Shown: piece by piece, positions 24,708-28,651 of the stretch | Position numbering within the stretch: the first letter of the stretch is position 1 | How the letters are laid out: each line of letters starts with the position of its first letter | Source: a virus | Lineage: Duplodnaviria > Caudoviricetes | Strand: one strand, 5' to 3' | DNA: 29,753 nucleotides | Virus record (IMG/VR): IMGVR_UViG_3300005512_000232 | Span: 1-29,753 of that record | The notes under the pieces: model-generated | What the model was told of the DNA's origin: nothing | The model's input: only the letters and a program-made list of their open reading frames with translations | The model's database searches: none | Program-made: the position numbers and the translations under genes

Positions 24708-25661
24708 ATGGCCCAACTTGATACTGTAAAGACTCAGAAGACTGCTGGATATGTTGACCGTGGATTTAACCACGCCAAGAAGCAGAAGATGCTTGAGGAA
24801 GAAGAGAAAGAGATTGCTCGACTAGAAGCTCAACAACGGGGTGAGACCTATGAAGAAGGGTCCGAGGAATCCGATAGCGAGGCACCTAAGGCAACCCAAG
24901 TTCAGGAAACAAGTGGTTCCGAACAAGAAGAAGCCGACACGGAAGCCGAAGCACAGGAAGATGACTCTAACCTGACCGCTGAAGAGAAGTCCTTCAAGAA
25001 GCGTTATGGTGACCTACGTCGCCACATGCAACTCAAGGAGAAGGAGTGGCAGGATCGTCTTGAGGCTCTTGAGGGTCGAGCAAAGACTCACAACATTATT
25101 CCACCCAAGTCTGATGAGGATATCGAGAAGTGGGCAAAGAGATACCCTGATGTTGCGGGTATTGTAGAGACGATTGCTGCAAAGAAGGCACAGGAACTCT
25201 TTAAGACTGCAGAGTCTCGCCTTGCTGAATTTGATAAGGTTCAGTACGAGGCTACACGCACTAAGGCTGAGAATCAGATTCGGGATACACACCCTGACTT
25301 TGACAAGCTTCGTGCAAGTGATGAATTTCATGAGTGGGCAGATGCTCAACCCAAGTGGGTTCAGGATGCCCTCTACGAGAATGCAGATGACCCTGCCTCG
25401 GTTGTCCGTGTGATTGACCTCTACAAAGTAGACAAGGGTCTTAATCCTGCGGCACGTAAGCAGTCTGCAAAGGATGCCGCCTCGGCTGTGACACGAAAGT
25501 CTGCCAAGGCAAGCATAGATCCTGATGACTCCTCAAACTATCTTAAGGAGTCTCAGGTCGCCAGGATGTCTGCAGAGGAGTTTGAGAAACACTCTGACGA
25601 CATCAACCAGGCAATTCGTTCTGGAAAATTTATCTATGATATCTCTGGTAGAGCAAGATAA
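24708..25661 (+). CDS. Capsid scaffolding protein (putative)
   Basis: Acidic N-terminus, FKKRYGDLRRH, HPDF..F.EW..QP; directly upstream of MCP. Confidence 0.8.
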   Translation: MAQLDTVKTQKTAGYVDRGFNHAKKQKMLEEEEKEIARLEAQQRGETYEEGSEESDSEAPKATQVQETSGSEQEEADTEAEAQEDDSNLTAEEKSFKKRYGDLRRHMQLKEKEWQDRLEALEGRAKTHNIIPPKSDEDIEKWAKRYPDVAGIVETIAAKKAQELFKTAESRLAEFDKVQYEATRTKAENQIRDTHPDFDKLRASDEFHEWADAQPKWVQDALYENADDPASVVRVIDLYKVDKGLNPAARKQSAKDAASAVTRKSAKASIDPDDSSNYLKESQVARMSAEEFEKHSDDINQAIRSGKFIYDISGRAR

Positions 25662-25663
25662 GT

Positions 25664-25693
25664 GTTGACAAGCGTTTTGTTCTGGATATAACT
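25664..25693 (+). promoter_or_regulatory. MCP promoter
   Basis: TTGACA-N16-TATAACTA. Confidence 0.75.
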
Positions 25694-25696
25694 AAG

Positions 25697-25900
25697 CACC
25701 AGTAGTCACGAGCCTCCCTCAGGGATTACCTCAGACTACAAAGCTTCCCAAAGCCTAAACGACAAGTAAGAACTACCTGGACAAGTACAGGCCCGTCCCT
25801 CCCCGAGTTGGCCGACTTAGGGAGGGTACGCACCCTAGAACGTGCAGCCTCTTGATTGTGATGTTTAGCTTTCTCATCAAAGCCAAACTATCATAGGAGG
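25697..25900 (+). ncRNA. Structured ~200-nt MCP 5' leader
   Basis: Stems GCCTAAAC..GTTTAGC, CCTG..CAGG, CCCTCCC..GGGAGGG, TCCC-TCA-GGGA. Confidence 0.5.
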
Positions 25901-25907
25901 ATATAAC

Positions 25908-26981
25908 ATGGCTTTTCAATCCGCTGCAGGATGGGGTAACCTGCCCAACGGGAATTTCTCGTCGGTAATCTACTCCAAGAAGGTGCAACTTGCACTTCGC
26001 AAGTCTACCGTTGTTGGTGACATCACCAACTCTGACTACTTCGGTGAGATTGCTTCGCAGGGCGATACCGTCCGCATCATCAAGGAACCTGAAATCTCGG
26101 TCTCGTCCTACGCTCGTGGTACGCAGATCACTGCTCAGGATCTGGATGACGAAGACTTCTCGCTCGTTATCGACAAGTCGAACTACTTTGCTTTCAAAGT
26201 CGATGACATTGAAGAAGCTCACTCGCATGTGAACTTCATGGACCTGGCAACCAACCGTGCTGCCTACCGTCTTGCCGACCAGTACGACCAGGAAGTCCTG
26301 GGCTACCTGTCGGGCTACAAGCAGTCGGCTCTTCATGCTGCTGCTGACGCAGTCAATGATGTCGTCAACGGCACCAAGGCTGTGGACACTGCTGGTTCGG
26401 ACGAACTGCTTGCTTCCATGAAGCTGAACAAGGGTAAGTTTGGTAACATCACGACGACTTCGGCTGGCGATCACTCGATCCCCGTTGCTGCTCGTCTGCC
26501 TGGTGCCACTGCTCTGCCCACCGCCTACGTTTCGCCTGTCATGTTGATTAACCGTATGGGTCGTCTTCTTGACCAGCAGAACGTGGACAAGGCTGGTCGC
26601 TGGATCGTCATCGATCCGATCATGATGGAAGTCCTGATGGACGAAGACAGCCGTTTCCTGAACGCTGACTTCGGTGACTCGGGTGCTCTCCGTAATGGTC
26701 TGGCCCTGACCAACTGGAACGGCTTCCGTGTGTACGTGTCGAACAACCTGCCGCAAGTTGGCGGTGGTGCTGGCACTACGGGTACTGCAAACCAGAACAC
26801 CGACTATGGTGTTATCGTCGCTGGCCACGAGTCGGCTGTTGCAACTGCAGAGCAGATCAACAAGACCGAAACCTATCGTGACCCCGACTCGTTTGCTGAC
26901 ATCGTGCGTGGTATGCACTTGTATGGTCGTAAAATCCTCAGAAGCGAGGCGCTGGTAACAGCAAAATACAACCTCGCCTGA
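25908..26981 (+). CDS. Major capsid protein (HK97/P22-coat type); unspliced form ends at 26981, spliced form joins 25908-26930 to 27665-27715
   Basis: AGGAGG SD, strong codon bias, DYFGEI..GDTVRI, FAFKVDDIE, FADIVRGMHLYGRKILR. Confidence 0.92.
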   Translation: MAFQSAAGWGNLPNGNFSSVIYSKKVQLALRKSTVVGDITNSDYFGEIASQGDTVRIIKEPEISVSSYARGTQITAQDLDDEDFSLVIDKSNYFAFKVDDIEEAHSHVNFMDLATNRAAYRLADQYDQEVLGYLSGYKQSALHAAADAVNDVVNGTKAVDTAGSDELLASMKLNKGKFGNITTTSAGDHSIPVAARLPGATALPTAYVSPVMLINRMGRLLDQQNVDKAGRWIVIDPIMMEVLMDEDSRFLNADFGDSGALRNGLALTNWNGFRVYVSNNLPQVGGGAGTTGTANQNTDYGVIVAGHESAVATAEQINKTETYRDPDSFADIVRGMHLYGRKILRSEALVTAKYNLA

Positions 26982-27664
26982 TGCGCTTTACTAGAGTAAT
27001 CTAGTATCGAAACCCCCTTAATTCAGAGAAACCCTAAGGAGTTTGGACGACTCTATGGCAACTCTGAGCGAAGCCCGAAAGGGAACGTGCAACGACTAGG
27101 GAGCCATCCCGTACCTTCAAGTGAAGGGAAATAGGGGGAAACCGAATTGACAAACCTCGGTTTTTGATATAGTCTAATCTGCATGGAAACATGCAGCAGA
27201 GGTAAAGATGGTACAGAAAATAAAACTTCCAGAGGGTCACCCTTACAAAGATGGAAGAACTTGCACTAGCTGCGGAGAGTTTAAACCTGCCTCCCAGTTT
27301 ACATTGGAAAAAGACTCCCGAGCTTTTGGTGGAGTTGCTATGAGATCCAAGTGCAAACCCTGTAACGAGTTTCGTAAGTACAAAGGTTTTATTAAACGTA
27401 CTTATGGGATTACTTACGAGCAGTATGAAGAGTTGCTTGAACAACAAAACCATTGCTGTGCAATCTGCAAGAGTAAGGTTTCTAGTTCGAGAACAAGTAG
27501 ACTCTTCGTAGACCACTGCCATGACAGTCTAGAGGTTAGAGGGCTTTTATGTTCCTCATGCAATCACGGCCTCGGACTTTTCAAGGATAGCCCTACACTG
27601 CTTAAACGTGCCATACACTACTTAGCCTCGGGTAAAGACTAACGCTCTTTGCTGAATATAAATG
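26931..27664 (+). ncRNA. Group I self-splicing intron (IA-like) in MCP
   Basis: Exon ends in U (CGT) and intron ends in G; P2 TACTAGA-GTAA-TCTAGTA; P3 CCCCCT/AGGGGG; P AATTCAGAGAA; Q GGCAACTCTGAGC; R GTGCAACGACTA; S TGATATAGTC; P9 CTGCATG-GAAA-CATGCAG. Confidence 0.9.
27208..27642 (+). CDS. Intron-encoded endonuclease VII-family homing endonuclease
   Basis: YGITYEQY..Q..CAIC..LFVDHCH..VRGLLCSSCNHGLGLFKD; lies 3' of P9. Confidence 0.9.
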   Translation: MVQKIKLPEGHPYKDGRTCTSCGEFKPASQFTLEKDSRAFGGVAMRSKCKPCNEFRKYKGFIKRTYGITYEQYEELLEQQNHCCAICKSKVSSSRTSRLFVDHCHDSLEVRGLLCSSCNHGLGLFKDSPTLLKRAIHYLASGKD

Positions 27665-27715
27665 AAGATCCTTCGTCCTGAAGCTCTTGTGACTGCAAAA
27701 TACAACCTCGCCTGA
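27665..27715 (+). CDS. MCP 3' exon (KILRPEALVTAKYNLA*)
   Basis: In frame with exon 1 after removing 26931-27664; followed by the SD of the next gene. Confidence 0.88.
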   Translation, partial: KILRPEALVTAKYNLA

Positions 27716-27730
27716 TAGGAGAACTAAATC

Positions 27731-28216
27731 ATGGCTACTGTTACTACCCTCGCAGGTGGCGCAACCGCAGGCCGTACTGCTGGTTCCGTTCCCTATCTCG
27801 TCAGCGTAAACATTGACCTCGCTGCTGCTGCAACTGCTAAGGGTTCGGCCCTGGCTGCTGCAGACATCATCGAAGCAATCAGTGTTCCCGCAAACACCGT
27901 TGCCCTGACTGCTGGTATCGAGGTTATCTCGGCACTGGTTGGTGAGTCGGCAGACACCCGTCTTCTGTTGGGTGTCACTGGTGGTGATGTTGACGCATTC
28001 GTCGCATCCTGGGACGCAACTGCTGCTGCCGCTGGTGCTTATGCTCCTGCTGCTGCGACTGTCCCCGTTGTGTTCGGCACGGCTGACACCATCGACCTCG
28101 AAATCGACGCTGCCACGACTGCTCCGACCGCAGGTACTCTGCGTGTCTGGGCTGTCCTGATGGATGTTGATGGTCGCTATGGTGCGGCTGAAGCTGACCG
28201 TGATCAACTCGCATAA
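27731..28216 (+). CDS. Capsid decoration/cement-like protein (putative)
   Basis: Ala-rich 161 aa right after MCP, same codon bias, followed by a hairpin. Confidence 0.7.
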   Translation: MATVTTLAGGATAGRTAGSVPYLVSVNIDLAAAATAKGSALAAADIIEAISVPANTVALTAGIEVISALVGESADTRLLLGVTGGDVDAFVASWDATAAAAGAYAPAAATVPVVFGTADTIDLEIDAATTAPTAGTLRVWAVLMDVDGRYGAAEADRDQLA

Positions 28217-28222
28217 TAACAG

Positions 28223-28247
28223 AGGGGGGCTGCTTCGGTGGCCCCCC
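28223..28247 (+). terminator. GC hairpin, probable terminator or stabiliser
   Basis: GGGGGGCTGC-TTCG-GTGGCCCCCC; weak U tract. Confidence 0.6.
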
Positions 28248-28255
28248 ACTCTCCC

Positions 28256-28651
28256 ATGAGAATACTTCATTCTAAGAAAAAAGTTGAAGGTTTTGAACAC
28301 CGTATTTTTTCTTTGGATGACGTGTACTGGAAGCTGGATGAGGCTGCAGTTCTAGACCGCAAGTTTAGAGAAGCCTTATCTAAGTCGCTAGATGAACAGG
28401 GGATGCTGTGGTCTCCTATTGTGTGGAAGCAGTCTGTATTTCTCACCTACTTAAAAGAGAGTAAGAGAAGACATGACCCTGCTAAGTCCATAGAGATTGA
28501 TCTGGAGTACAGGGTTGCCATAGGCAACAACAGGTTCCACTACGCACAGCAAAGAGGTTACACTCACATAGAGTGTGTTGTAGCCGATAGATGGCAAAGC
28601 CGAGACTTAATCCTTTCTCACACTGAGATGGAATACAAGAAAGACTTTTGA
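28256..28651 (+). CDS. ParB/Srx-fold-like protein
   Basis: LSKSLDEQGMLWSPIV..YRVAIGNNRFHYAQQRGYTHIECVV. Confidence 0.6.
   Translation: MRILHSKKKVEGFEHRIFSLDDVYWKLDEAAVLDRKFREALSKSLDEQGMLWSPIVWKQSVFLTYLKESKRRHDPAKSIEIDLEYRVAIGNNRFHYAQQRGYTHIECVVADRWQSRDLILSHTEMEYKKDF

Follow-up and report, generated by a model that had tools for sequence, protein, structure and literature searches.

Why should a phage gene spell out its own ending twice? The question is raised by a major capsid protein gene in a virus record of 29,753 nucleotides, ∼53% complete, which was analysed whole and is called the window below. Sixteen codons before the gene's end, the reading frame runs into a recoded copy of its last codons and stops; a group I core and an endonuclease ORF follow, and only then comes the native ending (Table 1). 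The original prediction took this as a group I intron with a spare copy of its own 3′ exon, so that capsid synthesis would not depend on splicing. Our analysis suggests that the locus probably holds a mobile, nuclease-bearing intron with a spare ending, formed when an intron took up a free-standing nuclease together with a cut-resistant capsid ending, with Ser-346 in the unspliced product and Pro-346 in the spliced one.

Table 1. Features of the capsid locus, in window coordinates
Feature	Position	Strand	Basis
Major capsid protein 5′ exon, codons 1–341, ends in U of GGU CGU	25908..26930	+	phrog_267 E 2e-64; 83.5% identity to Roseobacter phage CRP-13 coat protein (71.7% to HMO-2011); fold matches phage capsids
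Group I intron, 734 nt, entire insertion relative to intronless alleles	26931..27664	+	empty-site joint; RF00028
Recoded spare 3′ exon KILRSEALVTAKYNLA plus stop, 51 nt, in frame with exon 1, in P1 loop	26931..26981	+	sequence; codons rare for capsid gene
Predicted hairpin from the spare itself, −16.0 kcal/mol	26938..26981	+	z −3.1 versus synonymous recodings
Internal guide sequence UGCGCUU; G26983 pairs with U26930	26982..26988	+	in 10/10 alleles
P2	26990..27005	+	two-sided changes in 6/6 pairs
Ribozyme core P3–P9, including P7 (27094–27098 / 27170–27174), P7.1, P7.2	27013..27196	+	RF00028; covariation
EndoVII-type (DHHRN) endonuclease ORF, 144 aa, after P9	27208..27642	+	PF02945 E 2e-24
Intron 3′ end YUGAA...AAUG, terminal G27664	27643..27664	+	AAUG end kept in 10/10 alleles
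Native 3′ exon KILRPEALVTAKYNLA plus stop	27665..27715	+	identical peptide at ends of CRP-13, CRP-9 and CRP-1 capsids
161-aa gene; right flank for homing	27731..28216	+	comes after capsid gene in many relatives; without Pfam or PHROG match

Polymerase, primase/helicase, integrase, terminase and portal genes are consistent with the HMO-2011-type phage group, and from the nearest isolates the host might be guessed to be Roseobacter. The capsid gene is preceded by a ∼240-nt non-coding leader (25680–25900) with several inverted repeats and no Rfam match at the gathering score; no + strand promoter or terminator was predicted in 25600–28400. A 137-aa ORF without a Pfam match (28238–28651) lies between the 161-aa gene and the adaptor gene, and is missing here in several relatives. 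An alignment-based structure model of the capsid protein, low-confidence over 125 residues, resembles phage capsids and places residues 349–356 in a confident strand. The single-sequence fold had a pLDDT of 29 and was useless.

The insertion and its ribozyme core

Near-identical intronless alleles in two public runs (X3 and X6) join 26930 exactly to 27665, with a 2-nt ambiguity, which fixes the boundaries of the insertion where they had been drawn originally. Both copies of the 3′ exon, the support for which had been named as decisive, are also present in separate assemblies, L004 (one substitution and one N in 4159 nt) and L186. In run X1, a 798-nt contig across 26897–27694 carries the insertion with 29 differences (96% identical). 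These three sequences rule out an assembly artefact: the insertion is real, 734 nt long and polymorphic. The landmarks of the original prediction (exon 1 ending in ..GGTCGT at 26930, the 51-nt copy, GCGCTT at 26983–26988 and an exon after G27664) are all present, and the terminal G restores the reading frame.

Rfam model RF00028 matches at 26965–27196 with 82.9 bits (gathering score 50), and seven further loci with the same intron (L004, L005, L009–L012 and L014) score 55–83 bits. In a hand-built structure for nine variants, 95.6% of cells were paired, against 30–43% when the same structure was slid as a control, and two-sided changes were found in 28 of 63 pairs (0/500 shuffles). P7 was invariant across the nine variants, and RNAalifold recovered most core helices unaided. 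The P7.1 and P7.2 hairpins (helices 10 and 11), whose placement between P7 and P3′ is a criterion of subgroup IA2, had two-sided changes in seven of eight pairs. Such compensated substitutions indicate that the ribozyme core is under selection, and the full group I core claimed at the outset holds up. A decaying intron rescued by exon duplication, the fallback of the original prediction, is not supported, since the core covaries and the nuclease gene differs from its X1 variant by 17 silent and four replacement codons (22 listed variants). A possible long-range pairing of the intron's 3′ end with the nuclease ribosome-binding region (P9.1) gave shuffle fractions of 0.01–0.63 in ten alleles and is only suggestive.

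Four of six RNA runs were examined; three of these show the 26930|27665 joint and none covers the intron. The joint contigs differ at several letters on each side, and one links to an allele with a free-standing nuclease. As intronless alleles would give the same joints, we did not score these as splicing; in the four runs, spliced RNA of an intron-bearing allele was not seen.

Two endings and one guide

As first described, the spare differs from the native 3′ exon at 12 of the first 30 nt and then shares 22 identical nt; eight codon changes are synonymous and one, the Ser/Pro difference, is not. Because its codons are scarce or absent in the body of the capsid gene (AGA 0/15, GCG 0/38, ACA 0/21), unlike those of the native exon, which opens with common ones, the spare reads as a foreign copy. 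The 22-nt identity is peculiar to the window's allele, the corresponding run being 5–11 nt in the other nine. Between each spare and its own 3′ exon, pS was 0.61–1.12 (silent sites saturated) and pN 0.06–0.19. Among the spares themselves, pS exceeded pN in 36 of 36 pairs. As the alleles are kin, all p-values are descriptive only. Frame and stop are intact throughout. In two distant hosts, whose capsids end in ARVNIA and LVRAIYNIN, the spare agrees with its host at 10/10 and 9/10 tail residues and with other hosts at only 3–7. Spare and 3′ exon are alike at all ten tail residues in five of the ten alleles; the other five differ at one or two, a pattern that movement of the element between alleles would produce.

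Taken as substitution patterns, these comparisons indicate that the spare is under purifying selection at the protein level, as had been proposed. The further claim, that the silent bias means both copies are translated, is not proven for the 3′ exon, since homing supplies a working exon and sequence seems to pass from one copy to the other; for the first of these reasons, an intact 3′ exon alone is no proof of splicing. Occasional conversion between the copies is what the window's 22-nt identity seems to point to, together with the 3′ exon of L153, which has spare-type codons relative to its intronless sister L083 (12 nt differ, nearly all silently).

In a pattern-based sample of 112 capsid ends, 110 have Pro at this position; all ten spares replace it, by Ser in nine and Ala in one. 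Two full-length endings are encoded in frame, and unspliced mRNA would likely give the Ser form and spliced mRNA the Pro form; a functional switch between these isoforms is unsupported. That the intron costs its gene nothing, as once suggested, is doubtful in view of the residue replaced, but the suggestion draws some strength from free-standing alleles, in which Ser or Ala endings occur alone.

The guide and the U preceding the 5′ splice site are invariant in the ten alleles, in agreement with the guide position and the placement of the spare in L1 originally put forward. Of 110 background ends, only 26 have CGT as this codon, and the Gly codon before it varies among alleles. P1 is short (three contiguous pairs, A+1.U and two pairs past a bulge) and invariant, hence without covariation. 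No P10 of more than one pair was seen, and the ligated-exon duplex is not stronger than the exon/guide duplex in seven of nine alleles. The spare's stop lies 0–13 nt upstream of the guide, so that a 5′ splice site after this first stop would leave no room for P1 and was rejected. An in-frame decoy at +15 makes five contiguous pairs with the guide in eight of nine variants.

According to energy-model predictions, which used a uniform codon null and related sequences, the U.G pair has a probability of 0.04–0.94 when the real spare is present; substituting the native exon brings it to 0.00 in 8/8 variants. The real value was reached by 0–5% of 300 synonymous recodings; in the ninth variant it was 0.03. 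Predicted P1 probability was only 0.03–0.09 in four variants. The mean hairpin z was −1.86 for nine spares, −0.35 for 28 free-standing endings, +0.28 for nine native exons and −0.15 for 35 background ends, and the L009 spare had no hairpin signal (z +1.2). On these predictions, the spare hairpin would close the loop, mask decoys and lead the guide up to the 5′ splice site, which would offset the weakness of P1.

Distribution of the layout and its nuclease family

Searches by nuclease, core and 3′ junction led to ten alleles with both ends, comprising nine distinct intron variants, plus one allele cut at its 5′ side. The spare comes first in all ten. In the widest junction scan, 33 viral loci resolved into 16 copies of the intron and 17 chance matches, and the spare was present in all 15 with a visible 5′ end; 26 metagenome loci resolved into ten, each with the spare, and 16 chance matches. 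No spare-less intron at the capsid-end site was among the intron loci found, and 120 candidates for one with a similar guide were intronless capsid ends or chance matches. Nor was a nuclease-free intron at this site among the intron loci, in exact-pattern searches that could miss diverged ones. Core matches in GenBank phages were partial only, none covering 80%.

Spare-less introns do occur in related capsid genes, as the survey suggested with the original prediction revealed, in the gene's 5′ part. Other group I introns lie there at L012:167–930, L013:1–1065, near 753 in L014 and at L015:134–1019, and L013 apparently has two, one with a 228-aa ORF. Because these introns lack a spare, and because the LittleE mycobacteriophage capsid intron is spliced efficiently according to PMC3706429, the spare is an option only near the gene's end rather than a general need of capsid introns. 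The P3/P4 motif is also present at L172:1980–2700, a locus that was set aside: the group I intron there is another one, which contains an ORF and lies in the terminase-like gene of a larger phage.

Over their last 140 residues, host capsids share 55–92% identity with that of the window, and the nucleases 60–74%; in the two distant hosts, the values are 61% and 55% for the capsids and 70% and 74% for the nucleases. On a quick capsid tree with two long branches, intron and intronless alleles are interleaved by six changes, at least two of them forced by strong branches. The interleaving fits lateral spread, and on these sequence relationships the intron is likely mobile.

The nuclease ORF had gone unmentioned in the original prediction. 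Residues D102, H103, H105, R111 and N119 and the CxxC pairs are invariant in ten of ten rows of the nuclease alignment. The catalytic set and its spacing are those of F-CphI, for which PMC6083498 lists D101, H102, R110 and N118. At L005:1980–2436 and L009:2001–2452, the nuclease ORF meets no stop within the intron and continues past the 3′ splice site, reading the exon region in a different frame. From a nuclease profile search with 259 relatives, the best 80 gave 53 distinct rows for a tree: 12 are housed in introns, 28 are free-standing and come immediately after the capsid stop, and 13 are other or unclassified. The 12 intron-housed nucleases are a single clade (100/96) inside the capsid-linked family; a free-standing Ser-type allele as sister of this clade was not present among the 53 rows. 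GTDB genomes gave 48 distant EndoVII matches, with a best segment of mostly 30–56%.

A link between the recoding and the nuclease's target had been postulated, and the free-standing relatives do recode the same site, where they would presumably cut. CGY..CGY CCN is kept in one of 28 free-standing alleles versus 69 of 110 background ends, and the GRKILRPE peptide is altered in 13 of 28; the background pattern fixed K-I-L-R, and only the Pro comparison is unbiased. The first Arg is recoded to AGR in many free-standing alleles, and Ser or Ala replaces Pro, as the sole ending, in four of the 28. Both non-Pro ends among the 112 sampled capsid ends precede such a nuclease ORF, and the ending peptide of L374, a free-standing allele, is identical to that of two spares. 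The replacement looks like escape from the nuclease. Since single-ending free-standing alleles carry them, Ser- and Ala-ending capsids can apparently work alone. In intron alleles, CGU is needed for P1, and this constraint may explain why every one of them changes Pro instead.

A large family of free-standing EndoVII nucleases (L337–L384) occupies the gap between the capsid gene and its downstream neighbour, with capsid-end changes R to K, I to L or V, and P to A or S at otherwise constant residues. More distant EndoVII-like ORFs stand behind capsid genes with unrecoded KILRPE codons (L042, L049, L096 and L108) and probably target another site, to judge from those codons. Related nucleases also occur behind a T7-like capsid gene ending in GHG..RPEC (L385–L400), and in L391 the capsid frame is apparently altered at the motif.

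Proposed origin of the composite and its place among known systems

The history that we favour starts from the free-standing relatives, which sit right behind capsid genes with recoded KILRPE codons and within whose family the intron-housed nucleases derive, on the tree, as one clade. Such a nuclease would cut the native site, and a single crossover could have put the immune ending into L1 and the nuclease gene into P9; the intermediate needed for this step, a nuclease-free intron at the site, was not among the intron loci found. In mixed infections, native ends would be cut and the whole insert copied. Ribosomes ahead of splicing would read to the spare's stop and make a whole subunit, not one without its last strand, while the spare's codons are predicted to be tuned for folding back, presenting the guide and hiding decoys. 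Between ribosomes, the hairpin would refold and P1 form, and splicing would restore the Pro form and leave the late transcript free of the nuclease ORF. By conversion between spare and native exon, the tail of the spare may be kept in step with each host.

Other readings must be weighed against this history. The best of them, which we still regard as unlikely, makes the spare the sole working ending of a self-healing insertion like the nuclease ORFs of fungal mitochondria, with the ribozyme kept to remove or silence the nuclease ORF and the 3′ exon intact only through homing before fresh host exons. To our knowledge, the fungal nuclease ORFs that replace a C-terminus cut the displaced one off permanently and come without a ribozyme. 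The same element does stand before different 3′ exons (L011 versus L197), P1 is weak, Ser and Ala endings suffice in free-standing alleles, and ribosomes halting so close to the guide would probably cover it. Yet the U at −1 and the terminal G are exactly frame-restoring in 10/10 alleles, distant hosts keep host-specific residues in both copies despite saturated silent sites, and the L153 3′ exon differs from that of its intronless sister almost wholly at silent positions.

Two further readings are improbable, and about equally so. In one, the spare would be retained chiefly for its RNA structure, as an elongated P1 stem; its coding would be a legacy of the immune allele upheld by conversion, and unspliced RNA would yield little protein. 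The hairpin enrichment in spares and the signs of conversion favour this reading. Conversion, however, would level silent sites too, yet L005, L009 and L011 are silent-saturated with identical tails, and the hairpin register shifts among variants, whereas the frame of the peptide and its stop stay intact in every one. Alternatively, competition between translation and splicing could be a selected switch that sets the Ser/Pro ratio, supplying two capsid subunit types with different roles. This would suit both the loss of Pro from 10/10 spares at a site otherwise so constant and the rival partners that the guide has inside the spare, but the same substitutions are found in single-ending free-standing alleles, where nuclease immunity fits, and most relatives have a single ending.

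A true 5′ splice site inside the spare after AGY (+15), which would give a five-residue repeat in the spliced capsid, is very hard to credit: for all its five contiguous in-frame pairs in 8/9 variants (U.G in five of those), the pairing is absent in L005 and has C instead of U in three, the site sits within the predicted hairpin and would put KILRS into a conserved strand region, and homology ties the 3′ site to the −1 position.

The favoured history invites a wider and more tentative generalization, to which we give somewhat less than even chances: that of a recurrent ‘fail-safe’ class of introns, each with a captured nuclease and an immune ending. The 51 nt would then serve at once as capsid code, nuclease-proof target and P1 scaffold, ribosomes would set the ratio of spliced to unspliced RNA, and virions would be Ser/Pro mosaics. 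If the fail-safe reading is true, the intron family is a frozen record of the transition from free-standing to intron-encoded nucleases. Both states, intronless targets and immune alleles occur in one phage group, which makes this transition a testable case; so is the manner in which group I introns cope with heavy coupled translation. There is also a warning for annotation, since such introns are missed because the capsid ORF appears complete.

No description of the spare-exon layout was found in searches of the open-access full-text literature. Its parts are each precedented in phage capsid introns, collaborative homing and fungal inserts that replace a C-terminus; the combination is new as far as found. 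An in-frame stop close to the intron start is described for many group I introns in PMC3984707. The LittleE capsid intron (PMC3706429) and T4 td-type introns (PMC3984707) share with the present one a group I core, a U before the intron and a G at its end, an inner nuclease ORF, a conserved coding site and an early in-frame stop. Their unspliced RNA gives a truncated protein, whereas here the stop is reached only after the whole of a recoded 3′ exon.

Mobile introns can arise, according to PMC3984707 and PMC2988022, when a free-standing nuclease that is already pre-adapted recombines into an intron. Collaborative homing, as documented for F-CphI and the psbA intron of cyanophage S-PM2 and for T7-like phages (PMC6083498, PMC3984707, PMC2988022, PMC10448857), resembles the present case in its EndoVII-type family, a free-standing nuclease adjoining its presumed target and the recombination route. 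Here, a nuclease beside the target gene was found in 28 rows and a nuclease-free intron at the site was not. In contrast to the documented cases, the free-standing and intron-housed states belong to one nuclease family, and the composite took a recoded gene ending as well.

Fungal mitochondrial nuclease insertions (Allomyces atp6, Ophiostoma rps3 and Phlebia atp6/cox2, PMC4019555; Endoconidiophora atp6/cob, PMC6279837), likewise bring a foreign in-frame C-terminus and a nuclease ORF and displace the original ending downstream. In the accounts consulted, no conserved exon-rejoining ribozyme is described for them, whereas here a covarying group I core and frame-restoring ends surround the nuclease. 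Finally, IStrons, composites of a group I intron and IS200/605 elements treated in PMC3984707 (see also PMC4227781), also join a ribozyme to DNA mobility in a way that renders the insertion harmless. They are harmless only by splicing, carry no exon copy and use a transposase rather than a homing nuclease. The capsid intron would thus represent a second route to a harmless mobile element, one that, besides splicing out, carries with it the ending that it cuts off.
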